A DNA stretch of 64,000 nt from Burkholderiales bacterium (GTDB lineage: Bacteria > Pseudomonadota > Gammaproteobacteria > Burkholderiales > SG8-39), in contig DASPRX010000145.1 of the NCBI GenBank assembly GCA_035624235.1, forward strand, positions 5,241 through 69,240. Reading direction: 5' to 3'. The position numbers and the translations under genes were made by a program. Of the stretch, positions 6,118 through 47,704 are shown piece after piece; position 1 is the first letter of the stretch; each line of letters opens with the position of its first letter. Below the pieces are notes generated by a model that worked only from the letters and a program-made list of their open reading frames with translations, was not told the DNA's origin and did no database searches.

Positions 6118-8246
<2,129 letters not shown>

Positions 8247-8325
8247 GGCGCGGGAATTATAGGGGCGGCACTCGTAGGGACGCTTTCCGCTGCATGGGAA
8301 CTACGGGATAATCCGGCCCCGAGGC

Positions 8326-21394: not shown

Positions 21395-24300
21395 ATGGCC
21401 GCACCTCGCTTCGTCCATCTTCGGCTGCACAGCGAGTACTCGGTGACGGATGGAATTGTCCGCATCGACGAGGCCGTCGCGCGCGCCGCTGGGGACGAGA
21501 TGCCAGCGCTCGCGATGACGGACGCGGCGAATTTCTTCGGCATGGTGAAGTTCTACAGGGCGGCGCGCGCCGCCGGCGTTAAGCCGATCGTTGGTGCGGA
21601 CTGCTGGATCCAGAACGACGCGGACCGCGACAAACCGTTTCGGATGCTGCTCCTGTGCGCCTCGCGTGCGGGCTACCTGAAACTGTCCGAACTGCTTTCG
21701 CGCGCCTGGCTGAGGAACCAGCATCGGGCGCGCGCCGAGCTCGGGCACTCATGGCTTGAGGAGCTCGGCACCGAGGGCCTGATCGCGCTCTCTGGAGGAC
21801 CATCCGGGGATCTCGGCCAGGCACTCCTTGCCGGTAACGCAGGCCTCGCGGAGAAGGTCGCTCGCCGTTGGGCAAGCCTGTTTCGGGGGCGTTTCTACGT
21901 GGAGCTGCAGCGCGCCGGCTTGCCACAGGCCGAAACGCTGGTGACGCGCTCGGTCGAACTGGCGACGCGGCTCGACCTCCCTGTCGTAGCGACGCATCCG
22001 GTGCAGTTTCTCGCCCCTGAAGACTACAAGGCGCATGAGGCGCGCGTGTGCATTGCGCAGGGCTACGTACTCGGCGACAGGCGCCGGCCGCGCCTATTCA
22101 CGCCCGATCAGTACTTCAAGTCTCAGGCCGAGATGTCGCAACTGTTCGCAGACGTCCCGCAAGCGCTCGTGAACTCCATCGAGATCGCGCGCCGCTGCAA
22201 TCTGGAAATCGAGCTGGGCAAGAACCGGCTGCCTGCTTTTCCGACGCCGCCGGGAATCACGCTGGAGCAGTACCTCCGGGAGCAAGCCGAGGCTGGACTC
22301 GAGAGGCGCCTGGTGAAGCTGTATCGCGAGGAGGCGATGCGCGCGGCGCGGGCAGCGCAATATCGCGAGCGCCTGGCGTTCGAGCTGGAAACGATCGTGC
22401 ACATGGGATTCGCGGGCTATTTCCTCATCGTGGCCGACTTCATCAACTGGGCAAAGTCCAACGAGGTGCCCGTCGGCCCGGGACGCGGATCCGGCGCCGG
22501 CTCGCTAGTCGCCTACTCGCTCGGGATCACCGACCTCGACCCGCTCAAATACGATTTGCTGTTCGAGCGATTTCTGAATCCGGAGCGCGTATCGATGCCG
22601 GATTTCGACATCGATTTCTGCCAGGACGGCCGCGACAAGGTCATCAACTACGTACGCGCGCGCTACGGCGAGCAGAGCGTGTCGCAGATCGCGACCTTCG
22701 GTACGATGGCCGCGCGCGCCGTCGTGCGCGATTGTGGCAGGGTGCTCGACCTGGGCTACAACTTCTGTGACCAGATTGCCAAGCTCATTCCGGTGCAGCC
22801 CGGCAAGACGATCACTCTGCAGGATGCGCGCCAAATGGAGCCGCTGCTCGCCGAACGCGAGCGCAACGAAGACGAGGTGCGCGAGCTTCTAGAGCTCGGC
22901 GGAAAGCTCGAAGGCCTGACGCGCAACGTCGGCATGCATGCGGGTGGGGTGCTGATTGCTCCGGGGCGACTCACGGACTATTGCCCCCTGTACGCGGCGG
23001 AAGGCACCACGAACGTCATTTCCCAGCTCGACAAGGACGACGTCGAGGCAGTAGGCCTCGTGAAGTTCGATTTTCTCGGCCTGACGACGCTTACGGTTCT
23101 GGACTGGGCCGAGCGTTACGTGCGTGCGCTTGGGGACGAGGGCTTTGCCCTAGATCGCATCGCACTCGACGACCGCAGCGCCTACGCGCTGCTTGCGTCG
23201 GGCAATACGACGGCCGTGTTCCAGCTTGAATCCCGCGGCATGCGCGACCTCATCAAGCGTGCGCAACCGGACCGCTTCGAGGACATCATCGCGCTGGTCG
23301 CGCTCTACAGGCCCGGGCCGATGGACCTGATACCGGATTTCATCGCGCGCAAGCACGGCCAGGCGCCTGTCGAATACCTCGACCCGCGGCTCGAGCCGAT
23401 CCTTGGGCCGACCTACGGCATCATGGTCTATCAGGAGCAGGTAATGCAGATCGCGCAGGTAATCGGCGGATACACGCTGGGGGGCGCGGACCTGCTGCGC
23501 CGCGCGATGGGCAAGAAGAAGCCCGAGGAGATGGCCGAGCATCGGGACATCTTCGTCGCGGGCGCCGAAAAGGGCGGACTGTCGCGCGGCCGCGCGACGC
23601 AGCTCTTCGACCACATGGAGAAGTTCGCCGGCTACGGCTTCAACAAGTCCCACGCGGCGGCTTACGCGCTCATCGCTTACCAGACCGCGTACATGAAGGC
23701 GCATCACGCGTCGGCTTTCATGGCGGCCAACTTGTCTGCGGTGATGGACGATACGGACAAGATACGCGGGCTCCACGACGATAGTGTCCTGAACGGCCTC
23801 ACAGTGCTGCCGCCGGACGTGAATACGTCGGCGTACCGTTTCGTTCCGGTCGACGCAAAGACGATCCGCTACGGGCTGGGCGCGATTCGCGGCACCGGCG
23901 AATCGGCCGCGAAGGAGATCGTTCGCGTGCGCGAGGCGGGGCCGTTCCGAGATTTGTTCGATTTCTGCACACGCGTCGATAAACGCGTGGTCAACCGCCG
24001 CGCTATCGAAGCCCTGGTCCGGGCCGGCGCGTTCGACTCGCTCGATGCGAACCGCGCTAGCGCTCTAGCGAGCGTCGGGCGCGCCATCGAGGCCGCCGAG
24101 CAGGCCGAGCGACAGGCCGCGCAGGTGAGCCTGTTCGGCGAAGCTGACGCTGCGCGTGCTCAGGCGCTGCCGATGGCTGAGGCGAAGCCGTGGGATCTCA
24201 GGCAGAAGCTCACGGAGGAGAAGGCGGCGCTCGGTTTCTGTCTTTCCGGCCACTTGTTCTCGGTTTATGAGCGCGATCTGGCCGGTTTTCCGCGCGTCCC

Positions 24301-24838
24301 GCTGGCGCGCGTCCAGCCCTCGGACGGACGCGTCTGGCTGGCGGGCGTTGTCGCCTCCGCGCGCAGCCAAATGACGCGGCGTGGCCGCATGATGATCGTA
24401 ATTCTCGACGACGGCAGCGCGCAGCTCGAGGTCACCGTCTTCAACGAGCTGTTCGAGAAGCATCGCGACAAACTGAAGGAGGACGCCCCGCTGGTAGTGA
24501 ATGGCAAGGTGCAGCGCGACGATTTTTCCGGAGGGATGCGCGTCACGGCGGAGGAGTTGCTCGACCTTGCGGGAGTGCGCCAGCGCTTCGCGGCGCGCTT
24601 GCGGATCGAAATGAATGGTCAGGCAGACGCAAGGCGACTTGCTCAGTTGCTGGCGCCGTTCCGCGCGGGCGGCGACGGCAGTTGTTCGGTCCTGGTGCAC
24701 TATGAGAATGGCGTCGCATCCTGCGACGTCGCGCTCGGCGAGGCTTGGCGCGTGCGCCCGGACGGCGAACTTCTCGAACAGCTGGAGGCGTGGCTCACGC
24801 CCGAGAACGTGCACCTGGTGTACGCAAACTCAGTCTAG
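21395..24838 (+). CDS. dnaE: DNA polymerase III alpha subunit
   Basis: 1147 aa from MAAPRFVHLRLHSEYSVTDG (PHP domain), followed by the polymerase core and OB fold. The first 150 codons of track ORF 20945..24838 are Arg-rich and antisense to the EamA gene, so they are rejected. Confidence 0.95.
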   Translation: MAAPRFVHLRLHSEYSVTDGIVRIDEAVARAAGDEMPALAMTDAANFFGMVKFYRAARAAGVKPIVGADCWIQNDADRDKPFRMLLLCASRAGYLKLSELLSRAWLRNQHRARAELGHSWLEELGTEGLIALSGGPSGDLGQALLAGNAGLAEKVARRWASLFRGRFYVELQRAGLPQAETLVTRSVELATRLDLPVVATHPVQFLAPEDYKAHEARVCIAQGYVLGDRRRPRLFTPDQYFKSQAEMSQLFADVPQALVNSIEIARRCNLEIELGKNRLPAFPTPPGITLEQYLREQAEAGLERRLVKLYREEAMRAARAAQYRERLAFELETIVHMGFAGYFLIVADFINWAKSNEVPVGPGRGSGAGSLVAYSLGITDLDPLKYDLLFERFLNPERVSMPDFDIDFCQDGRDKVINYVRARYGEQSVSQIATFGTMAARAVVRDCGRVLDLGYNFCDQIAKLIPVQPGKTITLQDARQMEPLLAERERNEDEVRELLELGGKLEGLTRNVGMHAGGVLIAPGRLTDYCPLYAAEGTTNVISQLDKDDVEAVGLVKFDFLGLTTLTVLDWAERYVRALGDEGFALDRIALDDRSAYALLASGNTTAVFQLESRGMRDLIKRAQPDRFEDIIALVALYRPGPMDLIPDFIARKHGQAPVEYLDPRLEPILGPTYGIMVYQEQVMQIAQVIGGYTLGGADLLRRAMGKKKPEEMAEHRDIFVAGAEKGGLSRGRATQLFDHMEKFAGYGFNKSHAAAYALIAYQTAYMKAHHASAFMAANLSAVMDDTDKIRGLHDDSVLNGLTVLPPDVNTSAYRFVPVDAKTIRYGLGAIRGTGESAAKEIVRVREAGPFRDLFDFCTRVDKRVVNRRAIEALVRAGAFDSLDANRASALASVGRAIEAAEQAERQAAQVSLFGEADAARAQALPMAEAKPWDLRQKLTEEKAALGFCLSGHLFSVYERDLAGFPRVPLARVQPSDGRVWLAGVVASARSQMTRRGRMMIVILDDGSAQLEVTVFNELFEKHRDKLKEDAPLVVNGKVQRDDFSGGMRVTAEELLDLAGVRQRFAARLRIEMNGQADARRLAQLLAPFRAGGDGSCSVLVHYENGVASCDVALGEAWRVRPDGELLEQLEAWLTPENVHLVYANSV

Positions 24839-25854
24839 TCGCCGCGCGACCAGCGCACCGGGCACAGGTCCCTCGCGAGCAGTCCTCGGTAGTGTCGATA
24901 CCACGAATTGTCCAGGCGCTCGTCGGGATCGCGGCGCCTTTTCTCCGCGAGTAGCGACTTCAGCGCGGGATAGCAGGCCTCGGTTTGCTCGCGCGAAGCG
25001 TGAAACGTGCTGGCGATCGGAAAGCCTCCGCCGGCGGCAAGCGCAAGGTCGATCAGCTCGCGCCGCAGTTGCACGGCCCGCACGGTCCCGCCGATGGCCG
25101 GCGGCAATGCAAGCAGCAACGTCACCTCCGCGCACTCGCAGCGTGCCCAGCGAAGCATGGTTTCGTCTTCCGGAAGAACGCGGCGCACGCGCATGCCGCA
25201 GATCGGAATTCGCCGGTCCGCGCAGCGTTCGCGCACCTGCGCCAGCACGCCCTCCAGTCGGTGCGGCGGCACGAGCAGACCGAGCGAGCAATGCTCGCCG
25301 CCGTATTCGTTTTCCGGTATCTCGAGGATCGCGGCAGGCTGTGAATCGCGCGCACTGCGCAGCAGCGAGTCGACCCTGAGCGTGATGCTGTACGGCGCGC
25401 CGAACAGATCGTGGCCGCCGATGGCCAGCACGAAGAGCTCTTTGTTCGCGAACCGGCTGGCGCGCCGTAGCGACCCATCGGGCGTGACGAGGGCGAGCGA
25501 TTCGACGTGGGCGACCATGGGGCGCCCGTCCGGGCCGGCAGCATTGGCGGCGACGCATTCGCCGATGCTGGGCGGCATGTCGCCGCATTCGGCGAAGGAT
25601 TGCAGGTCGGAAGCGTGCTCGGCGAGGTAAGAGCAAAGCGCTCGCCATGGCGTGCCGACTTGCACCTCGACCAGCTGGCGTGCCGTGTCAAAGCGCAGCA
25701 CGCGGTCGAGGGCAGTGCGGTCCACGCCGATGGCACCTGGCTCGGGCTGGCGCATGGCGCTGCGCAATTCGTCCGCCGAGCGGACCCTGAACGTGCGTGG
25801 CGGCGCGGGCGGAGCGGGTTCTGGCAGCGAAGGCAGCGAAAGCGTCGCGAGCAT
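24835..25854 (-). CDS. FAD-binding (PCMH / FAD_binding_4-like) oxidoreductase family protein, divergent
   Basis: The middle of the protein resembles the second half of the PCMH FAD domain (GTPW..L..YLAEH, IGECVAANAAGPDGRP, HVESLALVTPDGSLRRAS, NKELFVLAIGGHDLFGAPYSITLRV). Start set to ATG 25854 with RBS GGGAGGA. Confidence 0.5.
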   Translation of the reverse strand: MLATLSLPSLPEPAPPAPPRTFRVRSADELRSAMRQPEPGAIGVDRTALDRVLRFDTARQLVEVQVGTPWRALCSYLAEHASDLQSFAECGDMPPSIGECVAANAAGPDGRPMVAHVESLALVTPDGSLRRASRFANKELFVLAIGGHDLFGAPYSITLRVDSLLRSARDSQPAAILEIPENEYGGEHCSLGLLVPPHRLEGVLAQVRERCADRRIPICGMRVRRVLPEDETMLRWARCECAEVTLLLALPPAIGGTVRAVQLRRELIDLALAAGGGFPIASTFHASREQTEACYPALKSLLAEKRRRDPDERLDNSWYRHYRGLLARDLCPVRWSRGD

Positions 25855-25922
25855 GGCGTCCTCCCTGGTCGTAAGTCGCGGCGAATTGTTGTTGCGGCGC
25901 TTCGTAGATCGCAATACGTCCG

Positions 25923-25951
25923 CGCAAAGTATCAAAATATGATACTTTGCG
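25923..25951. promoter_or_regulatory. 29-bp palindrome CGCAAAGTATCA-aaata-TGATACTTTGCG, a probable operator in a divergent promoter
   Basis: Read directly: 12-bp perfect arms with a 5-nt AT spacer. It lies in the AT-rich gap between the FAD-oxidase-like gene and the XRE regulator gene. Confidence 0.65.
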
Positions 25952-25955
25952 GCGC

Positions 25956-26708
25956 ATGCTGCAGAGTGCTCGCCTCGTCGACACGCTTAAGAAATGCCTG
26001 CGGGTACGTGGCATGACCTACGCCGATGTGGCGCGCGCGCTAGGGGTGTCGGAGCCGAGCGTGAAGCGCATGTTCTCGCGCGGCACCTTTACCCTCAGAC
26101 GAATCGAGGAAATCCTCGATCTGCTCGAGATGGATTTGTTCGAGGTTGCGCGCATGAGCCGAGGCGCGCGCGACGGCGCTGCCGAACTTGCGCTGGGGCA
26201 GGAGACGGCCCTCGCGAAGGACGAGCGCCTGCTGTCGGTGTTCTGGCTGTTGCTGAACGAGTGGCGCTTCGGCGAGATCCTTGAGGCGTACTCCATCACC
26301 CGGAACGAATTGACGCTCGCCTTCGCGCGCCTCGCCAGGCTGAAGCTGATCGATTGGGGCCCTGAGGAGCGCGCCCGGTTGCGTGTGGCCAAGGACTTTC
26401 GCTGGCGCGCCGGAGGGCCCGTGAAGAAGGCGTACGGCAAGCGAGTGACGCGGGAGTTCCTCGATGGCCGATTCGACGCTCCGCTAGAACTACTGCGTTT
26501 CGAGACACGCGAGATGTCCGCTGAATCCGCGGCGGTGCTCAGGCGCCGGCTGGAACGCGTGGTAGCGGAGTTCAACGACCTCGCAGAGGTCGATGCCGGG
26601 GCGGGTACCGCCCGTGGCATCGGGGTCGCCTTGCTGGTGGCGTGCCGCCCTTGGCAGTTTTCCGTCGTTAACGCGCTAAAGCGGCGCGGGGTACGTCAGG
26701 CGAGCTAG
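25956..26708 (+). CDS. XRE-family helix-turn-helix transcriptional regulator
   Basis: N-terminal HTH LRVRGMTYADVARALGVSEPSVKRMFS, plus a ~180-aa C-terminal domain of unknown type. ATG 25956 has no SD and sits ~12 nt after a TATGAT element, so the transcript may be leaderless. The track start at 25947 is a TTG. Confidence 0.75.
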   Translation: MLQSARLVDTLKKCLRVRGMTYADVARALGVSEPSVKRMFSRGTFTLRRIEEILDLLEMDLFEVARMSRGARDGAAELALGQETALAKDERLLSVFWLLLNEWRFGEILEAYSITRNELTLAFARLARLKLIDWGPEERARLRVAKDFRWRAGGPVKKAYGKRVTREFLDGRFDAPLELLRFETREMSAESAAVLRRRLERVVAEFNDLAEVDAGAGTARGIGVALLVACRPWQFSVVNALKRRGVRQAS

Positions 26709-27091: not shown

Positions 27092-27484
27092 ATGAGAAAC
27101 GTGCTATTGGCTGTTGCAGCGCTCGCCCTAATAGCGTTCGTCGTCGTCGCAGTGGTTCTGCCGCAAATGTCCGGCGCGGAGTCACGTGCGGCCGCCGAGG
27201 CGCTGATCGCGGGCGCAGATGGTGCCAAGAAGCAGGTCGAGGCGGCAGCACAGAAGTCCGGGAAACTGGACGGCGCGGGGCAAGGCTTAAAGATTGAGGC
27301 CAAGGTCGATCCCAAGCACGGTGAGATGAAGTGGCTCGTCGAAGGCAACGGGACAATACGTGCCTGGAATGCGAAAAACGCGATCGAAATCGCGATGACG
27401 CCGAGTCTGCGCGATGGCAAGACGAGCTGGATCTGCAAGGGTTATCCGAACGACGCCATGCCCGCTTCGTGCGGGGGAAGCTGA
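27092..27484 (+). CDS. Pilin-fold protein (type IV pilin-like globular domain) lacking a prepilin peptidase site
   Basis: 130 aa with an N-terminal hydrophobic helix, then LPQMSGAESRAAAEALIAGADGAKKQVE (resembles pilin IPQYQDYTARSQ..EAL). C-terminal W-x-C ... P-x2-C disulfide-loop pattern (SWICKGYPNDAMPASC). There is no G/FTLIE motif. Confidence 0.55.
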   Translation: MRNVLLAVAALALIAFVVVAVVLPQMSGAESRAAAEALIAGADGAKKQVEAAAQKSGKLDGAGQGLKIEAKVDPKHGEMKWLVEGNGTIRAWNAKNAIEIAMTPSLRDGKTSWICKGYPNDAMPASCGGS

Positions 27485-27505: not shown

Positions 27506-28021
27506 CTAACGGCGGGCGCGCTGCACGGCGGTCAGGATCCCCTGCATGACGGCAGCCGGTGCGGGAGGGCAACCCGGCACCGCGACGTCTACCGGAATCA
27601 CGTTCGCGACGCGCCCGCGGCTTGCATAGCCCTCGCCGAAGATCCCGCCGGTGCACCCGCAATCACCTATCGCCAACACGAGCTTCGGCTCAGGCACCGC
27701 GTCGTAGGTGCGGAGCAGTGCCGCTTCCATATTGCGCGAGACCGGCCCGGTCACCAGCAGCATGTCCGCATGCCGCGGGCTGGCCACAAAGCGGATGCCT
27801 AGACCCTCGATGTTGTAGTAGGGATTGTTGAGCGCGTGAATCTCCAGCTCGCAGCCATTGCACGAGCCGGCGTCGACGTGCCGGATCGCCAGCGCCCTGC
27901 CAATCAGGCGCAGCACTTCGTCGTTCAGCCGACCGCGCACCGTGCGCAGCGCGTCGTCTGGCGGGGGCGGCGCTTCGGTCTTGATGCCAACTTTCGCGAT
28001 CTGACGCAGCAGCTTGTGCAT
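27506..28021 (-). CDS. NuoB/HycG/HyfI-like small subunit of a group-4 hydrogenase-related complex
   Basis: 171 aa from MHKLL (ATG 28021). Four conserved Cys contexts for one [4Fe-4S] cluster: GSCNGCELE, IGDCGCTGG, VPGCPP. Confidence 0.85.
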   Translation of the reverse strand: MHKLLRQIAKVGIKTEAPPPPDDALRTVRGRLNDEVLRLIGRALAIRHVDAGSCNGCELEIHALNNPYYNIEGLGIRFVASPRHADMLLVTGPVSRNMEAALLRTYDAVPEPKLVLAIGDCGCTGGIFGEGYASRGRVANVIPVDVAVPGCPPAPAAVMQGILTAVQRARR

Positions 28022-28023
28022 GC

Positions 28024-29583
28024 TCAGAGATCCTGCCCCGCGTAAGACAGGTTGAAGGACTTGTTGATGAGCGGGAAGTCCGGGACGATGTTGCCGAGAA
28101 TGGCGTGTTCGAGCGCCGGCCAGTTCTGCCAGGACGGGTCGTGCGGATGGCAGCGGCGCACGGATCCGCCGGCGCCCGACTCGAGCGCAACGAATATCTC
28201 GCCGCGCCAGCCTTCGACCCAGCCGAGGCCCAGCGCACCGGCCTCGACGGGCGGCACCGGGACGCGACCGGCGCCCGGCGGCAGCCCGTCCAGGATGCGG
28301 CGCTCGATCCTGAGGGACTCGAGCAGTTCCTCGAACCGCACGTTTACGCGCGCAGCGACGTCGCCGTGCCGACGCGTACACATGCGCGGTTCGAGTCGGT
28401 CGTAGGGTGCACAGGCCGGATATACGCGCGCGTCGATCGCAAGGCCGCTGGCGCGCGCCGCGAGACCAACGACGCCTAGTGAAGCGGCAGTCTCCGCGCT
28501 CAATTTGCCACACGCGACGAAGCGGTCCTGCAGGCCCGCATGATCGTCGTAGATCGCGCGCAGGCGCTGGATTTCGAGCTCAAGCTGCACGGCCTCGTCG
28601 TGCAGCGACGCGATCCCGGCCGGCTCAAGATCGACGCAGACGCCGCCTGGCACGACGCAGTCCATCTGAAAGCGATGACCGAAGAGTTTCGCGTTCAGGC
28701 GCAGGACATTCTCCTTGAGGCGGGAGAACTGCGCCAGCCCGAAGGCCAGGCCGCCGTCATTGCCGAGGTAGCCAAGGTCGCCGAGATGATTGGCGATGCG
28801 CTCGCGCTCGAGCAGCAGCGCCCGCAGCAGCAACGCCCGCTCCGACGGCCGGGCCCCGGCCATCGATTCGAGTGCCATGGCGTAGGCCCATGCGTAGCCC
28901 ACGCTGCTGTCCCCTGAGATTCGCCCTGCCATGCGAATTGCCTCGTCGAGCTTCATCTGCTCGAAGCGCTTTTCCACGCCCTTGTGCTTGTAGCCGAGCC
29001 TTTCCTCGAGGCGCAGCACGCGCTCGCCGACGACCGAGAAGCGGAAGTGCCCCGGCTCGATCGTGCCCGCGTGCACCGGGCCGACCGGAATCTCGTGCAC
29101 GCCGTCTCCGTCCACCGTGACGAAGGCATAGCGGTCCTCGCCGCTGGTCCAGCTGGCGTCGCGCGCCACGTCGCGCCGTAGTGGAAAGACATCCTCTGGC
29201 CAAGCGGTGTGCCGCAGCCAGCCGCGTGGGTCCGCAGGCTGCCCAGCGCCGTTGATTGCGCGCGTTCCGACTAGATCGTAAGCCGCGCGCTGCATGCGAC
29301 CCGCGCAAGGAAAGATATCAGAGAGGTCTGGAAAGCTCGCTTGGTGTGCCGGCATCCTCAGTTCGAGGCATGCCAGCCCTTCGTAGCAGACCAGTAGCGC
29401 GTAGACGCGAAATCCGCCGCCGCGGTCGCGTTCGTCGCTTGACCAAAGTGCGCCGAGCCGCGCTCCCGCCGTGGCCGCAGACGCCGCCGCCGCGCGCCAG
29501 GCTTGGGCATCAAGCTCCGCGCGCCAAGCCGGCACGGCACCGGCGAGCGGCTTAAGCGGTATGCCGGGAAGCGAGGCGAGCAT
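28024..29583 (-). CDS. Fused NuoC/NuoD-like 'large subunit' (HycE/HyfG-like) lacking NiFe-binding cysteines
   Basis: Alignable by eye to E. coli HycE (VPVGPVHAGTIEPGHFRF, LGYKHKGVEKRFE, RRCHPHDPSWQNWPALEHAILGN). The L1 motif reads GRISGDSSVGY (28894..28923) and the C-terminal L2 motif reads SFNLSYAGQDL (28027..28059). Start set to ATG 29583 (TGAACATG after the upstream stop). An alternative start is 29619. Confidence 0.85.
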   Translation of the reverse strand: MLASLPGIPLKPLAGAVPAWRAELDAQAWRAAAASAATAGARLGALWSSDERDRGGGFRVYALLVCYEGLACLELRMPAHQASFPDLSDIFPCAGRMQRAAYDLVGTRAINGAGQPADPRGWLRHTAWPEDVFPLRRDVARDASWTSGEDRYAFVTVDGDGVHEIPVGPVHAGTIEPGHFRFSVVGERVLRLEERLGYKHKGVEKRFEQMKLDEAIRMAGRISGDSSVGYAWAYAMALESMAGARPSERALLLRALLLERERIANHLGDLGYLGNDGGLAFGLAQFSRLKENVLRLNAKLFGHRFQMDCVVPGGVCVDLEPAGIASLHDEAVQLELEIQRLRAIYDDHAGLQDRFVACGKLSAETAASLGVVGLAARASGLAIDARVYPACAPYDRLEPRMCTRRHGDVAARVNVRFEELLESLRIERRILDGLPPGAGRVPVPPVEAGALGLGWVEGWRGEIFVALESGAGGSVRRCHPHDPSWQNWPALEHAILGNIVPDFPLINKSFNLSYAGQDL

Positions 29584-29585
29584 GT

Positions 29586-31046
29586 TCAGCCGATGAGCCG
29601 CGCGGCTTGGCGGTACCACTCGGCAAGATAGGGCGGCATGTAAAGGCCGAGCAATAGAACGATCGCGAGGTGCGTGAACACTGGCAACAGCGCCGGCGGG
29701 TGGGGCAGACGCCTTGCGGTCGTGTCGCCAAATACCATCGGCTGGACTTTGCCGAATATCGCGGCGAACGCCACGCCCAGGGCGCCGAGCAGGATCGGCG
29801 CCGCCCAGGGATGAAGCGCGATCGTCTGCGTGAGGATGAGGAACTCGCTGGCGAACACGCCGAATGGGGGCATGCCCAGAATCGCGGCCGTGCCCAGCAT
29901 CAGGCCCCAGGCGACAGTCGGGCTGACCCGGATCAGGCCACGGATATTTTCCATCAGTTGCGTGCCGGTTTTTTGCGCGGCATGTCCCACGGCGAAGAAG
30001 ATCGCGCTCTTGGTCAGCGAATGCACGGTCATGTGCAGCAGCCCGGCGAAGCTCGCGACCGGACCGCCTATCCCGAAGGCGAACGTTATCAGGCCCATGT
30101 GCTCGATCGACGAGTATGCGAACATGCGTTTGATGTCGCGTTGCCTGGAGAGGAAAAATGCCGCGACCACGACCGACAGCAGCCCGAATCCGATCATCAG
30201 CGAGCTGGCGAAGGGCACCGCGCCGGCTTCGTGCAGCGACCCGTCCGTGATCACCTTGCAGCGGATGAGGGCGTAAAGGGCGACGTTTAGTAGCAGACCG
30301 GACAGCACCGCGGAGACCGGCGTCGGGCCCTCCGCGTGCGCGTCCGGCAGCCAGTTATGCAGCGGTACCAGCCCGACTTTCGTGCCGTAGCCGACGAGCA
30401 GAAAGACGAAGGCAATCGACATCACTGTCGGCTGGAGGCTGCCTTTTACCGCGTCCAGATGGGTCCACAGCAACGAATTGACGCCTGGCCCGAGCACCTT
30501 CTCGGCAGCGAAGTACACGAGGATCGTGCCGAACAGCGCCTGTGCGATGCCGACGCCGCACAGGATGAAGTACTTCCACGCCGCTTCGAGCGAGGCGTGC
30601 GTCCGGTATAGCGCGACCAGCAAGACGGTGGTCAGGGTCGCCGCCTCCATGGCCACCCACATGATTCCGAGGTTGTTGGTGGTCAGCACCAGCAGCATCG
30701 TGAAGCTGAACAACTGGTACATGCTGTGGTACAGGCGCAGGCCGGCCGCCGAAACGCGGCCGTGATCCCGCTCTATGCGCATATAGGGGCGCGAGAAGAG
30801 CGCCGTGGTCATGCCGACGAACGCGGTGAGCGTCACCAGAAACATGTTCAGCGAGTCGACGAAGAACTGCTGGCCGAGCACGCGCATGGGGCCACGCTCG
30901 ACGACGCGCACGGTGAGCGCGACCGCTCCGAGGAAGGTGAGTCCGCTGAACAGTGCATTTAGCTCGGCTGCACGGTCCCGGTGACCGTACAGCGCCAGCA
31001 GCGCCGCGCCCGCGAGCGGTGATCCGAGGAGCAGAATCATCTCCAT
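29586..31046 (-). CDS. NuoN/M-type (HyfF-like) antiporter-like membrane subunit
   Basis: 486-aa polytopic ORF of the proton-conducting NuoL/M/N / Mrp family (LHNWLPDAHAEGPTPVSAVLSG). Overlaps the upstream gene by 1 nt. Confidence 0.85.
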   Translation of the reverse strand: MEMILLLGSPLAGAALLALYGHRDRAAELNALFSGLTFLGAVALTVRVVERGPMRVLGQQFFVDSLNMFLVTLTAFVGMTTALFSRPYMRIERDHGRVSAAGLRLYHSMYQLFSFTMLLVLTTNNLGIMWVAMEAATLTTVLLVALYRTHASLEAAWKYFILCGVGIAQALFGTILVYFAAEKVLGPGVNSLLWTHLDAVKGSLQPTVMSIAFVFLLVGYGTKVGLVPLHNWLPDAHAEGPTPVSAVLSGLLLNVALYALIRCKVITDGSLHEAGAVPFASSLMIGFGLLSVVVAAFFLSRQRDIKRMFAYSSIEHMGLITFAFGIGGPVASFAGLLHMTVHSLTKSAIFFAVGHAAQKTGTQLMENIRGLIRVSPTVAWGLMLGTAAILGMPPFGVFASEFLILTQTIALHPWAAPILLGALGVAFAAIFGKVQPMVFGDTTARRLPHPPALLPVFTHLAIVLLLGLYMPPYLAEWYRQAARLIG

Positions 31047-31708
31047 CAGTGCTCCTTCAGCTTCTCAAGGTGGCGCGTATCGAGCGAATCGAATCGCTCG
31101 CGAATCTCGAAAATGAAGATGCCGAGAATCAGCGCGCCCACCAGCACGTCGAGCCCGACGCCGAGCTCCACCACCATGGGCATGCCGTATACGGCGCCGG
31201 TGGCGGCGAAGAATAGGCCGTTCTCCATGGAGAGAAAGCCGATCACCTGGGGAATCGCCTTCGAGCGCGTGATCATCATCAAGAACGAAAGCAGCACGCT
31301 AGCGAGCGCGATGCCGAGCGTCGAGCGCGTGACCGTGCCTGCGAGCTCGGTGATTGGCAGCGCCAGATTGAATGCGAGCACGACCAGCACGATGCCGACC
31401 AGCATGGTGGTAGGGATATTGATCAGCGTTTCCACGTCCCACTTCACCTTCAGCCGTCGGATCAGACGGTGAAGAATCCAAGGCAGCAGCAGGACCTTCA
31501 AGCCGAGCGTCAGCAGGGCGGACCAATAGAGGTGGTGCTGGCCGGTCAACGTGGCGACCAGCGTCGTGGTGAGAAAGAGCACGAATCCCTGCGCGGCGAA
31601 CAGATTGATCAGCGACAACATGCGGCGCTGCGCAAGCATCGCGAAGGCGAGCAGCAGCAGGATCGCCGCGAGAAGATTGATAAGCTGCGGACCGTAGTGG
31701 GAAAGCAT
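31046..31708 (-). CDS. HyfE-like small membrane subunit
   Basis: 220-aa ORF with ~7 hydrophobic helices. Its position between the NuoH-like and NuoN-like genes matches hyfE. Confidence 0.75.
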   Translation of the reverse strand: MLSHYGPQLINLLAAILLLLAFAMLAQRRMLSLINLFAAQGFVLFLTTTLVATLTGQHHLYWSALLTLGLKVLLLPWILHRLIRRLKVKWDVETLINIPTTMLVGIVLVVLAFNLALPITELAGTVTRSTLGIALASVLLSFLMMITRSKAIPQVIGFLSMENGLFFAATGAVYGMPMVVELGVGLDVLVGALILGIFIFEIRERFDSLDTRHLEKLKEH

Positions 31709-31709
31709 G

Positions 31710-32660
31710 TCAAGTTTCCAGCAGCACGTGCACTAGCATGGCGAGGACCGCGAAAAGGAATGCCGTGCCGAGGAACTCGGGGGCGCGGAAGATGCGCATC
31801 TTCGCGCTGAGCGTCTCGATCAGTGCAAGCGCCGCGCCGCCAAGCGCAAGCTTGATCAGCAACGTCGGCAGGGCAAAGACAATGCCGAGCCAGTCGCCGC
31901 CGTGCGCGATGCCCCACGGAAAGAACACCGCCAGTCCCATGCACGAGTAGACGAACAGCTTGAGGCTCGCGGCCCACTCGATCATCGCCAGGTGGCGTCC
32001 AGAGTACTCGAGCACCATCGCTTCATGGATCATCGTGAGCTCAAGGTGGGTGGCGGGATTGTCGACGGGAATGCGCGCGTTTTCCGCCAGCGAGACCATG
32101 GTAAAGGCGACGCCCGCGAACGCCATACTCGGATATATGACGAACTCCTTGTGCGCGAGCGTCTGCACGATCGTCGCGAGGGACGTCGAGCTCGAGATGA
32201 GCGAGGCCGTGAACAGCACCATCAGCAGCGCCGGCTCGGCCAGGAAGCCGACCATCATTTCGCGCCGTGCGCCGAGCGAGCCGAAGGCGGTGCCGACGTC
32301 CATCCCTGCGAGCGCAACGAACAATCGCGCCAGTGCGAGCAGGCCGACGAGTGCGATCGCGTCGGCAGCGGCGTTCAGCGGCAGGTCGGTATCCAGCGTG
32401 GGCACGATCGCCGCAGCGAGCGCGAGGCTGCCGAAGATAAGGTAGGGCGCGATGCGGAAAAGCGGGCTGGCGTTGCGCGCCAGCACCACCTCCTTCTGGA
32501 AAAGCTTGCTCAGGGTGCGGTACGGCTGCAACAGGTCGGGGCCGCTCTTGTTCTGCAGCCAGGCGCGGCACTGGTTGACCCAGCCAGTTAGCAGCGGCGC
32601 AAGCAGCACCGCCAGCATGAGCTCCGCAAACTGGGCTGCGATTCCGGCGGGATTGATCAT
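31710..32660 (-). CDS. NuoH/HycD/HyfC-like membrane subunit
   Basis: 316 aa from MINPAGIAAQ (ATG 32660, ATGA overlap with the upstream stop). NuoH-like helices. The upstream 181 codons in the track ORF are Arg-rich and rejected. Confidence 0.82.
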   Translation of the reverse strand: MINPAGIAAQFAELMLAVLLAPLLTGWVNQCRAWLQNKSGPDLLQPYRTLSKLFQKEVVLARNASPLFRIAPYLIFGSLALAAAIVPTLDTDLPLNAAADAIALVGLLALARLFVALAGMDVGTAFGSLGARREMMVGFLAEPALLMVLFTASLISSSTSLATIVQTLAHKEFVIYPSMAFAGVAFTMVSLAENARIPVDNPATHLELTMIHEAMVLEYSGRHLAMIEWAASLKLFVYSCMGLAVFFPWGIAHGGDWLGIVFALPTLLIKLALGGAALALIETLSAKMRIFRAPEFLGTAFLFAVLAMLVHVLLET

Positions 32661-34654
32661 TTCACCAGGAACAGCAGCAAGAGCAGCGTCGCGAAGCTGT
32701 ACATCAGATAAACCGATATGCGCCCTCGCTGGAGCACCGTCACGAGCGAGGTGAGCCTGTCCACGCCGCGCGCGACCGGCAAGTAGAGCCAGCGCCACAG
32801 GCGGTCCTCCACCAGTTCCCGATAGCGCGGCCGCAGGTCGAACGGCGTCGGTGCAGAGTGTTCGACGCGAAAGAACGGCTCGAAGATCTGCCTGACAGGC
32901 TGACCGAAGCCTTCGGCAGTGTCCTGCATGCGGGCGTTGAGCGGTGCAAAGCCGCAATCCCAGGGGCCGGCGCGGCGCACGCGGCCGTGATAGAAGGCGC
33001 GCACCGAGAACCAGGCGAGCGCCACGAGAATCGTGATGAGCAGGAAGAACAGCGCCGGACTGTAGCTTGCGCGCCGCGGCTCGATCGGCGCGAGATAGAG
33101 CCAGCCGCCGGCGAGGCTCGCCATGCCGTGACCGGTGAGCGCCTTGGTCGTCGGATCGAGCATGCCGATCACCGTCGCAGGCACCAGCCCGAGCACGACA
33201 CATGCTGCGGCGAGCAGCAGCAGGCCGACGCGCTCCCAGGGCCCGGCATCATGAGCATCCGTCAGCTTGGGCTCACGCGGCTGGCCCAGGAACACGACGC
33301 CGTAGAACTTCACCATCACGTAGCCGGCGAGCGCCGCCGTGAGCGCGATCGACGCCGCGGCGATCGGCACCAGCATGTTGAGATAGGAGTGCGGCAGGCC
33401 CGGGCTAAACAGGAACGCCTGCAGCAGCAGCCACTCCGAAACGAAGCCATTCAGCGGCGGCAAACCGGCGATCGCCACGGTGCCGACGAGCGCGGTCCAC
33501 GCCACCCAGGGCATGCGATGGATCAGTCCTCCCAGGCGCCCGAGACTGCGCTCGCGCGTTGCGTGCAGCACCGAGCCGGTCGCGAGGAACAGCAGGCTCT
33601 TGAAGAATGCGTGATTGAGGCAGTGATAGAGCGTCGCGGTGAGGGCCAGCGCAGCGAGCGCGTTCATGCCGAAGCCGCGGAAAAGGATCGTCAGGCCAAA
33701 CCCCGCGACGATCAGGCCGAGGTTCTCGATCGATGAATACGCGAGCAGTCGCTTCATGTCGGTCTGCACGGCCGCGTAGACCGCACCGAACAGCGCGGAT
33801 GCCAGTCCGGCAGCGAGCGCAACGACGCCCCACCACCATATGGGAAAGCCCACCAGGTCGAAAGTGACGCGCAGCATGCCGTAGACCGCCGTCTTCAGCA
33901 TGACCGCGCTCATCAGGGCGGAAACGGGCGACGGCGCCGCGGGGTGCGCTTCCGGCAGCCAGGCGTGAAGCGGCAGCAGTCCCGCCTTGGCCCCGAAGCC
34001 CACCAGCGCGAGCAGGAACGCCGCGGTAGCCCATCCCGCCGAAGGCGCCAGGGCACGCATGCCGGCGAAGCTGTAGTCGCCGCTGCCGCTCTGCAGGGCA
34101 CCGAAGCAAAGCAGAATGGCGATCGCGCCGAGGTGCGCGAGGAGCAGGTACAGGTAGCCGGCGCGGCGGATTTCGGCCAGGCGATGGTCGCTCGTCACCA
34201 GGAAGTACGACGAAAGCGCCATCGATTCCCAGCCAACCATGAAGAAATAGGCATCGTCCGCCACCAGCACCAGCGCCATGCTGGCGAGGAAGGCGTGGTA
34301 GTAGAGCGCTTGCAGCCCCGGCGCAGTGCCTTCGCCGCGGCGAAAGTAGCCGCAGGCGAAGATCGAGATCGCCGCGGCGACTGCGCCGAGCATGAGCAGG
34401 AAGAACGCCGAAAGCGAGTCGAGCCGGGCGTGAAACGGCAGATCCGGTAGGCCGAGGGGCAGCACACGCGTTTGCGGCGGCAAGAACATGGCCGAGAGCG
34501 CCACCGCAGCAATTGCGAGACCGACCAGCGCGCCTGCGGGAAAGATCACTCGGCTCGCGATCCGGATGCTCGTCGGCGCTGCGAGCCCGCTGATTCCCAG
34601 CGCTAGCCAGGCGCAGGCAAGCGCGAGTGTGGCGTCAAGCGAACTCAAGTGCAC
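32657..34654 (-). CDS. NuoL-type (HyfB-like) antiporter-like membrane subunit
   Basis: 665-aa polytopic ORF (LHAWLPEAHPAAPSPVSALMS motif). GTG start at 34654. Confidence 0.85.
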   Translation of the reverse strand: MHLSSLDATLALACAWLALGISGLAAPTSIRIASRVIFPAGALVGLAIAAVALSAMFLPPQTRVLPLGLPDLPFHARLDSLSAFFLLMLGAVAAAISIFACGYFRRGEGTAPGLQALYYHAFLASMALVLVADDAYFFMVGWESMALSSYFLVTSDHRLAEIRRAGYLYLLLAHLGAIAILLCFGALQSGSGDYSFAGMRALAPSAGWATAAFLLALVGFGAKAGLLPLHAWLPEAHPAAPSPVSALMSAVMLKTAVYGMLRVTFDLVGFPIWWWGVVALAAGLASALFGAVYAAVQTDMKRLLAYSSIENLGLIVAGFGLTILFRGFGMNALAALALTATLYHCLNHAFFKSLLFLATGSVLHATRERSLGRLGGLIHRMPWVAWTALVGTVAIAGLPPLNGFVSEWLLLQAFLFSPGLPHSYLNMLVPIAAASIALTAALAGYVMVKFYGVVFLGQPREPKLTDAHDAGPWERVGLLLLAAACVVLGLVPATVIGMLDPTTKALTGHGMASLAGGWLYLAPIEPRRASYSPALFFLLITILVALAWFSVRAFYHGRVRRAGPWDCGFAPLNARMQDTAEGFGQPVRQIFEPFFRVEHSAPTPFDLRPRYRELVEDRLWRWLYLPVARGVDRLTSLVTVLQRGRISVYLMYSFATLLLLLFLVK

Positions 34655-34695: not shown

Positions 34696-35952
34696 TTATT
34701 CACTGCGTTTGCCCCTTACGATTCGGTGCGCTAGCAGCGCCCCGAGGATGCCCGCCGCGCCCACCAGCAGCCAGTCGCGTCGCCGCCAGCCGCGGCGCTC
34801 GCGCGTGGGCGCCGAGCGCAGCATTTGCGTCGCCGTCAGCGTTTGCTCGCCGGTCTCGGGCTCATTCTGCAGCCCGGTGAGCGCGGCGAGGTGCTGCGTC
34901 GCCTCGGCGGAATCGAAGTTGCGCGACATGCCGCGCGCCGGCACCTCGCCCAGCGCCGCGGCATCCGCGTCCACGAGACGCGTACGGTCGAACGTGCGCT
35001 CGAGCATGCGGGCGCGCGCCGCCTCGCCAACGATTGCCGCTTGCGACCCGGTGGAGAACGCAGTCATCGGACGCTGCGGCGCCGGCGCCACTCCGCCGTG
35101 CGCCGCCAGCTGACGCTCGCACTCGTGCAAGTCTCGCGCTAGCTCGGCGGCGCTCTGGTAGCGCTCGTCGAGCGACTTGGCGAGCATCTTGGCGACGATG
35201 TAGTCGAGCAGCTCGGGGACGTCGAAGTTGAGTACGCTCGGAGCCGGTGGCGCGAGGTTGACAATCTGGTACATCAGCGCCGTGACGTTGTCGCCGCCAA
35301 AAGGCGCCGTACCGGCCAGCATCTCGTACAGGATGATGCCGAGCGAGAAGATGTCGGAGCGGAAGTCGGCGCGCTTGCCAAGCACCTGCTCGGGAGACAT
35401 GTACTTGGGCGAGCCGAGCATCATGCCGGTCTGCGTGAGTACTTCGGATGCGCGCATGCGTGCGATGCCGAAGTCGGTGATCTTCACCATGCCGTTCGAC
35501 ATGATCATGATGTTGGGCGGCTTTATATCGCGATGCACGATGCCGCGCTGGTGGGCGTAGTCGAGCCCCTCGGCAACCTGGATCGCGATGGAGACGGCCT
35601 GCGCGACGGGCAATATCCGCCCCTCGCTGATCAGCGAGCGCAGCTCGGCTCCCTCGATGAACTCCATCGCCATGTAGGCGATCTCGCCGCTCTTGCCGAT
35701 GTCGTAGATGGTGACGATGTTGGGGTGGCTCAGGCCCCCGGCGGCACGTGCCTCCTGGTAGAAGCGTGCCTCGTACCTCTCGATGCCGTCGCGCTCGAGC
35801 GCCATGTTGACCGTCTTGACGGCGACAGGGCGCTCGAGCAACGGATCGACGGCCTTGTAGACGACGCCCATCGCACCGCGCCCGAGCTCGGCGACGATCC
35901 GGTACCGGCCAATCGACTGCGTTTCCATTGCGGGCGTCTGCAAGTCTGGCAC
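34696..35952 (-). CDS. Hanks-type Ser/Thr protein kinase with C-terminal membrane anchor
   Basis: GRGAMGVVYKA, VAVK, HRDIKPPNIM, DFGIA and SPEQ are all present. Followed by a ~100-aa low-complexity linker, then one TM helix (DWLLVGAAGILGALLAHRIV) 6 residues from the end. GTG 35952 lies 4 nt after the lipoprotein stop. An alternative ATG is at 35928. Confidence 0.88.
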   Translation of the reverse strand: MPDLQTPAMETQSIGRYRIVAELGRGAMGVVYKAVDPLLERPVAVKTVNMALERDGIERYEARFYQEARAAGGLSHPNIVTIYDIGKSGEIAYMAMEFIEGAELRSLISEGRILPVAQAVSIAIQVAEGLDYAHQRGIVHRDIKPPNIMIMSNGMVKITDFGIARMRASEVLTQTGMMLGSPKYMSPEQVLGKRADFRSDIFSLGIILYEMLAGTAPFGGDNVTALMYQIVNLAPPAPSVLNFDVPELLDYIVAKMLAKSLDERYQSAAELARDLHECERQLAAHGGVAPAPQRPMTAFSTGSQAAIVGEAARARMLERTFDRTRLVDADAAALGEVPARGMSRNFDSAEATQHLAALTGLQNEPETGEQTLTATQMLRSAPTRERRGWRRRDWLLVGAAGILGALLAHRIVRGKRSE

Positions 35953-35956
35953 GGCC

Positions 35957-36367
35957 TCAGCGCCCGCCCTTCACCGAGCGGAACACGGGCCCCCAGACGG
36001 GGTGACCCGCTTCGGCGGGCGCGAGCTGCATCGAGGGATCGATTTCCAGCGCCGCGCGGAACTCATCGCGGCACGGCCCCACGCGCCCGTCTGCGCAGTT
36101 GATAAACGCCAGGTACTTGTGCGCCTTGACCCGGTCGGCGTTCGAAAGCCCCTGCTCGAGCGCGAGTTGCAGGCTGCGTGCCGATTGCGCGTAGTGGCCG
36201 TCGTCGTAGTCGCGCAGCCCCTTGGCGAGAGCCGCTTCTCCCTTGTGCGCGAAAAGGTCATTGAAAGTGCGCTGGAGTTCGCGCACCGGCTCCGACTGGC
36301 ACCCGGCGAGCAGCAACATGACCGCCGCGGCGAGCAGGCATAGGATCCGTGCGCGGTTCGCGACCAT
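35957..36367 (-). CDS. Lipoprotein with TPR-like helical repeats
   Basis: 136 aa from MVANRARILCLLAAAVMLLLAGC (lipobox LAGC). Helical repeat-like body (YAQSARSLQLALEQG, KAHKYLAFINCADGR). The upstream 159 codons in the track ORF are Arg/Pro-rich and rejected. Confidence 0.75.
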   Translation of the reverse strand: MVANRARILCLLAAAVMLLLAGCQSEPVRELQRTFNDLFAHKGEAALAKGLRDYDDGHYAQSARSLQLALEQGLSNADRVKAHKYLAFINCADGRVGPCRDEFRAALEIDPSMQLAPAEAGHPVWGPVFRSVKGGR

Positions 36368-36368
36368 G

Positions 36369-37532: not shown

Positions 37533-37575
37533 CAATCGGCGTTCGCCCGATGCGGCGCGCGCGGCCGCGACGGAA

Positions 37576-39678: not shown

Positions 39679-39806
39679 CGACGGGCCTGAAACGGAGCGC
39701 ACGATTCTAGCAAAAGGAGCATGGTTACTGCGCCTTACGCGTGCCGAATTCGGTACACTTACCGACTTTTCTCCCCGCACACCGCGTGCGGGGCGAGGAT
39801 TCAGCC

Positions 39807-40892: not shown

Positions 40893-40902
40893 GCCTGAGC
40901 CC

Positions 40903-41469
40903 GTGACAATCAAATCGGACAAGTGGATCCGCCGCATGGCGCTCGCCGAGCGCATGATCGAGCCGTTCGAACCCGGCCAGGTGAAGGAGCTCGGCGGCCG
41001 CAAGATCGTGTCCTACGGCACCTCGAGCTACGGCTATGACATTCGCTGCTCCAGCGAATTCAAGATCTTCACCAACATCAACTCCACGATCGTTGACCCG
41101 AAGGCGTTCGATGAGAAGTCGTTCGTCGACTTTCGCGGCGACGTGTGCATCATTCCGCCCAACTCCTTTGCGCTCGCCCGCACCGTGGAGTATTTCCGCA
41201 TTCCGCGCAATGTGCTCACCGTGTGCTTGGGCAAGTCCACTTATGCGCGCTGCGGAATCATCGTTAACGTCACGCCTCTCGAGCCGGAATGGGAAGGGCA
41301 CGTGACGCTGGAGTTTTCCAATACCACGCCTTTGCCGGCCAAGATCTACGCCAACGAGGGAGTGGCTCAGGTGATCTTCATCGAGTCCGACGAGATCTGC
41401 GAGACCTCCTACAGGGACCGCGGCGGGAAGTACCTCGGACAGCGAGGCGTGACGCTGCCGCGCATCTGA
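40903..41469 (+). CDS. dcd: dCTP deaminase
   Basis: 188 aa ([43 protein letters not shown]). GTG start. Confidence 0.92.
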
Positions 41470-47604: not shown

Positions 47605-47704
47605 GGCGCCACCCCGGGGGGGCAATCCCTCTCAAATCCCCCCCTAGTCGGGTATATTCCCGGGCTACGCCTGCGGTAGCAAGAAAAAAGAGGGAGGAAC
47701 GGTC

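Follow-up and report, generated by a model that had tools for sequence, protein, structure and literature searches.

We analysed a 64,000-nucleotide stretch of a Burkholderiales genome (contig DASPRX010000145.1 of assembly GCA_035624235.1; hereafter the window), focusing on ehrL, a gene that resembles the large subunit of a group-4 [NiFe] hydrogenase. This gene is the fifth in a tightly packed six-gene operon, ehrA-B-C-D-L-S (hyfB/C/E/F/G/I-like), which occupies positions 27506-34654 on the minus strand. Start and stop codons of the ehr genes overlap or lie 1-2 nucleotides apart, the ATG of ehrB overlapping the stop codon of ehrA (ATGA), and the genes are translationally coupled. The six genes and the two segments of ehrL that align with the nickel-binding motifs L1 and L2 of hydrogenases are as follows.

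32657-34654, minus strand: ehrA, 665 amino acids, HyfB/HycC/NuoL-like antiporter-type membrane subunit (Pfam Proton_antipo_M, 2.5e-52)
31710-32660, minus strand: ehrB, 316 amino acids, NuoH/HycD-like membrane anchor (Pfam NADHdh, 6.1e-36)
31046-31708, minus strand: ehrC, 220 amino acids, HyfE-like small membrane subunit (NCBIfam 'hydrogenase 4 membrane subunit', 4.3e-25, under the cut-off)
29586-31046, minus strand: ehrD, 486 amino acids, HyfF/NuoN/MbsH-like antiporter-type subunit (Pfam Proton_antipo_M, 4.9e-53)
28024-29583, minus strand: ehrL, 519 amino acids plus stop, NuoC/NuoD-fused, HycE-like 'large subunit' without the [NiFe] cysteines
27506-28021, minus strand: ehrS, 171 amino acids, NuoB/HycG/MbhJ-like small subunit (Pfam Oxidored_q6, 2.1e-30)
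28894-28926, minus strand: former L1, GRISGDSSVGY, EhrL residues 220-230, remodelled to R221-I-S223-G-D225-S226 and aligned with HycE DRVCGICGFAH
28027-28059, minus strand: former L2 and C-terminus, SFNLSYAGQDL, EhrL residues 509-519, reading N511-L-S513-Y-A-G516-Q-D-L519-stop and aligned with HycE SLDPCYSCTDR

EhrA scored 885 bits against NCBIfam 'hydrogenase 4 subunit B' (cut-off 667), with HycC as its top match in the PDB (7z0s_C, 2.4e-67), and EhrD scored 854 bits against 'hydrogenase 4 subunit F' (cut-off 543), with MbsH as its top match (6u8y_H, 7.3e-37). EhrL combines an N-terminal NuoC-like domain (PF00329, Complex1_30kDa) and a C-terminal NuoD/hydrogenase-large-subunit domain (PF00346, Complex1_49kDa); it fell under every NuoD cut-off of NCBIfam and passed no NCBIfam cut-off at all. 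Its top match among solved structures was E. coli HycE of the formate hydrogenlyase (FHL; 7z0s_E, E = 1.8e-51, residues 74-515 versus 103-545), followed by Thermus Nqo4 and Pyrococcus MbhL. The operon encodes no two-cluster (ferredoxin) subunit of the HycF/NuoI type, no HycB, FdhF, NuoA or NuoJ and none of the Mrp-specific small subunits MrpB, C, F and G, and no redox partner gene adjoins it. Within the 64-kb window there are no hyp, nik (nickel-transport) or fdh (formate dehydrogenase) genes.

A preliminary description of this DNA, based on alignment by eye, had read ehrL as a HycE-type large subunit devoid of the four nickel-ligating cysteines. Profile and multiple alignments bore this out. 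The HMMER alignment placed HycE 'dRvCGiCgfaH' over EhrL 'gRisGdssvgy' and 'sldpcys' over 'sfnlsya', and a MAFFT L-INS-i alignment with E. coli HycE, HyfG, NuoCD and ~90 relatives gave an identical register, with no cysteine pairs at the L1 or L2 positions. The four [NiFe] ligand positions in EhrL are S223, S226, S513 and G516, so that all cysteines are replaced: the L1 motif of group-4 enzymes (RxCGxCxxxH) has serine at both of its ligand positions, and L2 (DPCxxCxxH/R) has serine and glycine. We rejected the possibility that a shifted alignment hides a cysteine site, because the two methods agree and EhrL has no conserved cysteine at any position, whether it is compared with 79 betaproteobacterial orthologues (57-100% identity) or with 65 representatives of more distant family members. 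Since the homologous alignment spans the full length of the protein, chance is not an issue for the motif alignment. The coordinates given earlier for SFNLSYAGQDL were exact; for GRISGDSSVGY the start at 28894 stands, and the end lies at 28926 rather than 28923, which had omitted the leading glycine.

Other parts of the putative active-site region are hydrogenase-like. The hydrogenase-type β1-β2 loop, HEIPVGPVHAGxIEPGHFRF, is invariant, including the proton-relay residue Glu176, and is common to the cysteine-bearing relatives. The C-terminus of EhrL coincides with the point at which HycE is cleaved during maturation (...CTDR|), the 32-residue extension of HycE being absent. An AlphaFold2 model of EhrL (predicted template modelling score 0.80) reproduced the HycE fold, with a TM-score of 0.82 to 7z0s_E.

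Two aspartates set the pocket apart. Asp276 (28756-28758) is present in >90% of Ehr sequences, and the nearest cysteine-bearing hydrogenases have glycine at this position. In both alignments it coincides with a conserved aspartate of NuoD (E. coli NuoCD 'FIQD'; Nqo4 'LLDLGA'), the partner of the quinone-site histidine in complex I. Asp276 is a complex-I-like feature within an otherwise hydrogenase-like pocket. The second aspartate, Asp225, lies between the glycine and the second cysteine of RxCGxC, a position that presumably corresponds to V74 of the Desulfovibrio fructosovorans enzyme. In standard [NiFe] enzymes, V74 forms a bottleneck or gate of the gas tunnel beside the nickel (PMC11134402). 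An invariant aspartate at this position would imply a polar rather than a gas-friendly pocket.

The preliminary description spoke of a loss of the cysteines. All four are indeed gone, but the data reveal their replacement by a strictly conserved new motif. Across the 79 orthologues, the L1 region reads A-G-R-[VI]-S-G-D-S-[TS]-V-A-Y-A-W-A-Y with mostly invariant positions: R221, G224 and D225 are invariant, S223 is found in 77 of 79 and S226 in 78 of 79. The C-terminus reads P-D-F-P-L-I-N-K-S-F-N-L-S-Y-[SA]-G-x-D-L-stop, with little or no variation at residues 502-514. When 1.84 billion cluster representatives were searched exhaustively, there were 6358 hits, of which 961 had E <= 1e-30. Of 93 representatives that are near full length, 65 carry [SA]-G-D-[STEN] together with N-L-S-Y-[SA]-G-x-D-L, and 15 carry intact ER.CG.C..SH and ELCY[AS]C.DR motifs. 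When we asked which positions are conserved in at least 85% of the S-G-D group and differ from a residue conserved in at least 75% of the cysteine group, the ligand positions S513 and G516 and Asp276 emerged; S223, S226 and the Ehr-invariant D225 also differ from the cysteine group, but fall outside these thresholds.

The ehr genes are under purifying selection. Compared with the two closest genomes, the ratio of nonsynonymous to synonymous substitutions (dN/dS) was 0.14-0.15 for ehrL and 0.03-0.10 for the other ehr genes, and all six reading frames are intact. We rejected decay into a pseudogene on the basis of dN/dS and motif invariance. Together, the comparisons indicate that the four cysteines were swapped for a strictly conserved Ser/Asp motif, i.e., replacement and not decay, in what looks like one ancient event. 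In a separate observation, one metagenome-assembled genome (L003, positions 4900-10000, EhrL 73% identical) matched ehrA-D in short pieces with dN/dS near 0.4-1; this fragmentation looks like the product of frameshifts or faulty assembly, not of true divergence.

The preliminary description had also stated that the neighbouring NuoB-like subunit keeps its four [4Fe-4S] cysteines, and this proved correct. C54, C57, C121 and C151 of EhrS are invariant in 77 orthologues and follow the hydrogenase-type pattern CxxC...C...CPP, which serves a single [4Fe-4S] cluster. The best PDB matches of EhrS were MbhJ (6.8e-38) and HycG (6.2e-37), and its cysteines align with the proximal-cluster ligands of both, giving EhrS the CxxC-type proximal site expected of a group-4 small subunit. 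In the CxxC geometry of MbhJ/HycG-type subunits, both cysteines ligate the cluster, from which electrons are relayed to the large-subunit site (PMC7684303). The membrane arm likewise retains its pump residues. E143, K223, K254 and K352 of EhrA are invariant in 56 orthologues, and E134, K223 and K346 of EhrD are also invariant, so that the glutamate of transmembrane helix 5 and the lysines of helices 7 and 12 are invariant in both antiporter-like subunits. The pump residues of the NuoH-like EhrB are invariant as well, and acidic residues in its loop and motifs (E139, E147, E198, D205, E212 and E218) are conserved.

A scan with one genome per species revealed a relative in more than 576 genomes, of which the best 80 loci were analysed. 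Almost all of these are labelled Betaproteobacteria or unclassified Proteobacteria metagenome-assembled genomes (Burkholderiales, Casimicrobiaceae, Gallionellaceae and Nitrosomonadales), together with Sulfuricella sp. T08; a few records bear discordant labels (Enterobacteriaceae, Streptomycetaceae, Acidiferrobacterales). The order A-B-C-D-L-S was kept in all 61 complete loci, with ehrC at the same position in every one. Among cultured bacteria, carriers are found in Cupriavidus necator (H16_A2196-2201 in strain H16), C. metallidurans CH34, several species of the Burkholderia cepacia complex, Paraburkholderia and Variovorax, among others. In C. metallidurans CH34 (Rmet_4666-4671, annotated 'hyfBCEFGI') the six genes stand in the same order, and the motifs read AGRVSGDSTVAYAWAY and NKSFNLSYAGHDL-stop. 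Public annotation of the EhrL family is inconsistent and partly wrong: EhrL orthologues are recorded as 'hydrogenase expression protein HypE', 'NADH-quinone oxidoreductase subunit C', 'hydrogenase large subunit' or 'Hydrogenase-3 subunit E', orthologues of EhrB, EhrC and EhrS variously as 'formate hydrogenlyase', and the complexes also go under 'hydrogenase 4' or 'NuoC'.

In a neighbour-joining distance tree of 90 sequences, built without support values, the S-G-D sequences formed a single large clade, with the 15 cysteine-bearing sequences as an adjoining grade and HycE and HyfG outside. Many Betaproteobacteria carry ehr in the same chromosomal slot, with metG/mrp(apbC)/dcd on one side and dnaE on the other; in the window the flanks of this slot lie at 20945-24838 and 37576-41469. 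The shared slot favours long vertical inheritance over recent transfer. We rejected horizontal transfer or compositional oddity of ehrL, as its GC content at third codon positions (0.80) resembles that of its neighbours and the operon sits at the syntenic site between metG/mrp/dcd and dnaE.

A search of the 10-kb flanks of the 80 loci turned up no conserved redox partner. Apart from syntenic housekeeping genes, what recurs there is limited to particular clades: a Ser/Thr kinase, a TssQ-like lipoprotein, a cyclase/PEGA protein, a FAD_binding_4 protein, an HTH regulator and a small secreted open reading frame. In the window, three of these lie between metG and ehrA (34696-37535, minus strand), namely the kinase (34696-35952), the TssQ-family lipoprotein associated with type VI secretion systems (~35957-36400) and the cyclase-homology/PEGA protein (36369-37535). 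The kinase stop codon is 41 nucleotides from the ehrA start, and the trio stands beside ehr in 8-15 of the 80 loci; a functional link is not convincing, as the trio stays on the metG side where ehr is inverted (L016). Between ehrS and dnaE are the FAD_binding_4 gene (24835-25857, minus strand) and an XRE/HTH regulator (25947-26708, plus strand), the former kept in 12 related loci and the latter in 6. Most carriers lack the flavoprotein, which could still be a redox partner particular to this clade. Convergent on ehrS is a 130-amino-acid open reading frame with an N-terminal hydrophobic segment (27092-27484, plus strand), which occurs at the same position in 10 close loci; one orthologue has a C-terminal cysteine pair, and the frame has no family assignment, its NCBIfam match reaching only 2e-4. 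A YoaK/DUF1275 gene found upstream in Burkholderia pyrrocinia and Rhizobium leguminosarum was discarded as a candidate, since it occurs neither in the window nor in the 80 loci. Scanning the DNA for promoters of the sigma-70 type and for intrinsic terminators produced no signal exceeding shuffled expectation. The remaining genes of the window are housekeeping genes (mnmA, purB, secDF, queA, pcnB, dnaE, metG, mrp, dcd, folA and others); a DndB-like protein associated with DNA sulfur modification (47648-48826, plus strand), beside a DUF1223 gene, bears no relation to ehr.

These features match those of a described class of complexes. Ehr stands for energy-converting (or Ech-) hydrogenase-related and denotes complexes without the CxxC motifs, close to group 4f or 4a, whose function is unsolved (PMC7894505, PMC6349859, PMC10284858, PMC10432482, PMC4758237). 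The name was first given to Geobacter sulfurreducens EhrA-1/B/C/D/L/S (GSU0739-0745) and was generalised by Marreiros et al. in 2013; in Mycobacterium tuberculosis, an Ehr-like locus is reportedly kept without hyp genes (PMC6728331). The window operon has the defining group-4-like large subunit without Ni-Fe-coordinating residues (PMC6349859, PMC10284858), it combines NuoB-like, NuoH-like, HyfE-like and Mrp/NuoL-type subunits in an order that is invariant across the 61 loci, and in the distance tree without support values it falls next to, but outside, the cysteine-bearing group-4 hydrogenases. The Ehr-type assignment made in the preliminary description is upheld by the large subunit, the EhrS cluster ligands and the intact NuoH-like, HyfE-like and two antiporter-like subunits under purifying selection.

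A closely related system has a genetic record. The hyqRBCEFGI genes of Azorhizobium caulinodans encode a six-subunit 'core complex I', the Hyq 'endo-hydrogenase', in which HyqG lacks both CxxC motifs. Deletion of hyq and hup together abolishes recycling of nitrogenase-derived H2. At less than 1 µM O2, Hyq was reported to be the source of most of the H2 evolved, including in a nifK mutant; H2 evolution remained substantial in a nifK hupSL mutant, and a hupSL hyq double mutant evolved H2 at ~20% of the rate of the hupSL single mutant (PMC2650096, PMC2930871, PMC3357923). The plasmid-borne HyqG of R. leguminosarum, named as an orthologue by the Hyq authors (PMC3357923), has 504 amino acids, cysteines at 259, 491 and 497, 41% identity to EhrL and the motifs AGRTSGDSTVAY ... 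NKSFNCSYSGHDL-stop. A Hyq-type representative from Falsiroseomonas (P0138) is 47% identical to EhrL and is sister of the betaproteobacterial clade in the neighbour-joining tree.

The window operon has the same gene set as hyqBCEFGI and, like HyqG, a large subunit without either CxxC motif (PMC3357923). The order B-C-E-F-G-I equals A-B-C-D-L-S, the motifs S-G-D-[ST] and N-x-S-Y-S-G-x-D-L are common to both, and HyqI has four cysteines at nearly the positions of those in EhrS. In contrast, the sequences are just 41-47% identical, no hyqR-type gene precedes the window operon, and NifA-dependent expression and H2 phenotypes are known from A. caulinodans alone (PMC2650096, PMC3357923). The three conserved cysteines of HyqG (C258, C491 and C497 in A. 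caulinodans) have no counterparts here: positions 491 and 497 correspond to I506 and L512 of EhrL, there is no cysteine at the 258/259 position, and none of the three is conserved in the window clade or the family. The comparison shows that the Hyq 'endo-hydrogenase' and the betaproteobacterial 'hyfBCEFGI' clusters belong to one and the same family.

Taken together, the operon probably encodes a six-subunit, complex-I-like machine of the Ehr/Hyq type, descended from a group-4 [NiFe] enzyme but without a thiolate-ligated Ni-Fe site, which acts as an oxidoreductase and moves ions by means of a remodelled pocket. EhrABCD would lie in the membrane, with EhrL and EhrS on its cytoplasmic face. We propose that, as the complex has no relay subunit of the HycF/NuoI type, its single EhrS cluster exchanges electrons with a soluble carrier of low potential without an intermediary. 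Electrons would then pass from the cluster to, or to the cluster from, a substrate held where EhrL, EhrS and EhrB meet, in a hydrophilic pocket of Ser, Asp and Glu residues. Changes in charge at the pocket may be transmitted through the conserved loop system to EhrB, EhrC, EhrD and EhrA, where they would drive the movement of H+ or Na+; powered by the membrane potential, the complex could operate in reverse. The leading substrate candidates are a membrane quinone and a small polar molecule. A quinone, which the Hyq authors also proposed, is suggested by the complex-I-like Asp276 and by the fact that the carriers are aerobes that contain quinones. Beyond the conservation data, these mechanistic steps are inferred.

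Several points weigh against this interpretation. No substrate, partner or metal content has been established for any Ehr complex, and the operon has no equivalents of NuoA, NuoJ and NuoI; a gene for an electron-input subunit could lie in another part of the genome. The ligands of the complex I quinone site are likewise missing from EhrL, where Nqo4 His38 corresponds to I175 and Tyr87 to G224. The AlphaFold2 model has local confidence (pLDDT) below 50 at residues 150-201 and 490-519, i.e., at the pocket, and because the model is unreliable there, pocket geometry is inferred from homology alone. Finally, the genetics of the orthologous Hyq system point to H2 turnover (PMC3357923).

The lack of an electron-input module in the operon and of a conserved redox partner in the flanks would also be expected if the complex were no longer an oxidoreductase at all but a cation or proton transporter, with an Mrp-like membrane arm and, in EhrL/EhrS, a cap that is structural or senses redox state and gates transport through its cluster. 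The strong matches of EhrA and EhrD to Mrp subunits and the absence of all classical NiFe and quinone ligands fit this picture. However, a structural cap would not be expected to keep Glu176, the β1-β2 loop, Asp225, Asp276 and a four-cysteine cluster across such a wide radiation, and MrpB, C, F and G are not in the operon. We consider a transporter of this kind unlikely.

A second alternative takes the Hyq phenotypes at face value: the complex would be a non-canonical hydrogenase that oxidises or evolves H2 at a cysteine-free or differently ligated site, coupled to the quinone pool. The subunits, gene order and motifs common to EhrL and the HyqG proteins of R. leguminosarum (41%) and Falsiroseomonas (47%), the position of the Hyq clade as sister of the betaproteobacterial clade and the H2 phenotypes of hup hyq double mutants (PMC2650096, PMC2930871, PMC3357923) argue for it. 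A 2026 study of Burkholderia plantarii, which has no annotated hydrogenase, described weak but reproducible H2 oxidation in membranes (PMC13626601), and we take this as a lead only. Against it, Hyq activity is known from mutant phenotypes and never from a purified enzyme, the Hyq-conserved cysteines are not retained here or family-wide, and Asp225, at what we take to be the V74 gate position, predicts a polar pocket. To our knowledge, moreover, there is no H2-activating site without a thiolate ligand. The authors of the CH34 genome judged its hyfBCEFGI cluster unlikely to serve lithotrophy (PMC2864759). Hydrogenase activity of this kind therefore seems improbable, and canonical H2 chemistry by the Ehr complex is unlikely. 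The earlier conclusion that the complex 'cannot be' a hydrogenase stands in so far as it is not a canonical [NiFe] enzyme, but was too strong given that, on the strength of mutant phenotypes, the orthologous Hyq complex was reported to take up and evolve H2 (PMC2650096, PMC2930871, PMC3357923). The accompanying suggestion of an ion-translocating oxidoreductase with an unknown redox partner gains support from the conserved cluster and pump residues, and an oxidoreductase of this kind, not a canonical [NiFe] hydrogenase, is the most likely identity of the complex.

More speculatively, the strictly conserved Ser223, Asp225, Ser226, Ser513, Tyr514 and Gly516, served by the hydrogenase-type proximal [4Fe-4S] cluster, might form a new kind of catalytic site with oxygen ligands or a non-thiolate cofactor, which would account for the H2 turnover attributed to the Hyq orthologues. 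We give this very little credence, but if true it would represent a fourth, Hyp-independent chemistry of hydrogen cycling, or else a redox site for a small molecule that is just as unprecedented, and it would be common among the Alphaproteobacteria and Betaproteobacteria of aerobic soils. That the operon is a decaying relic, a hydrogenase whose active site was lost and which is now drifting, is hardly credible: all four ligand cysteines are gone, but EhrL has a dN/dS of ~0.15 and the other subunits have lower values, six intact frames stand in invariant order, the replacement residues are themselves invariant, and homologues number in the thousands (with 961 cluster representatives at E <= 1e-30 and >576 species genomes).

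Ehr/Hyq complexes sit between the membrane hydrogenases and complex I, and they are very common, occurring in Cupriavidus, the Burkholderia cepacia complex and rhizobia and, according to the literature, also in Nitrospira, ammonia-oxidising archaea and M. tuberculosis. Genome surveys that count them as hydrogenases overpredict H2 metabolism. Identifying the Ehr substrate would close a gap in bacterial bioenergetics as well as in models of the origin of complex I. To this, our analysis adds the fixed Ser/Asp replacement, the identity of Hyq with the betaproteobacterial 'hyfBCEFGI' family and tractable hosts with near-identical motifs, such as C. metallidurans CH34.

In comparison with known systems, the operon is a member of the already described, functionally unsolved Ehr/Hyq class and not a new kind of system. 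With Geobacter Ehr it has in common the group-4-like large subunit without cysteines, the [4Fe-4S] small subunit and the NuoL-, NuoH- and HyfE-like membrane subunits (PMC7894505, PMC6349859, PMC10284858). It differs in that its clade is betaproteobacterial, is located at the metG/mrp-dnaE site and has no formate dehydrogenase neighbour, the Geobacter, Nitrospira and archaeal systems being compared by description. The nearest true hydrogenases are large subunits of the cysteine-bearing, group-4f-like type, which are 35-40% identical to EhrL and share the β1-β2 loop and a PDFPLINKSF...DR/DL C-terminus without an extension; the literature, too, places Ehr beside group 4f (PMC10284858). These enzymes have ER.CG.C..SH, ELCY[AS]C.DR and Gly276, whereas Ehr has S/D/S, S/G and Asp276.

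The E. coli FHL (hydrogenase-3) and hydrogenase-4 provide the best structural matches for EhrL (7z0s_E) and EhrA (7z0s_C), and for EhrS the second best (7z0s_G) after MbhJ. HycE and HyfG are NuoC-NuoD fusions like EhrL, with EPGHFR in the β1-β2 loop, but they keep all four cysteines and a C-terminal extension that is removed during maturation; FHL further includes HycF, HycB, FdhF and linked hyp genes, none of which occur in the ehr operon or the window. MBS/Mbx of Pyrococcus furiosus and complex I represent precedents in which the NiFe site was lost while the proximal cluster, interface chamber, three-loop coupling and antiporter-like pumps were kept (PMC7684303, PMC8165549). MBS supplies the best PDB match of EhrD (MbsH); in contrast to Ehr, it retains two of the four cysteines, has a three-cysteine proximal cluster with a shortened loop and includes a NuoI-type two-cluster subunit. 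Complex I has adjacent CC ligands for cluster N2, the His/Tyr quinone ligands and a NuoI-type subunit, whereas EhrS has a four-cysteine, CxxC-type cluster, and neither the CC ligands nor NuoI, NuoA, NuoJ and the N-module are encoded in the ehr operon; the two also have in common the aspartate at position 276 of EhrL, aligned with the conserved NuoD residue.

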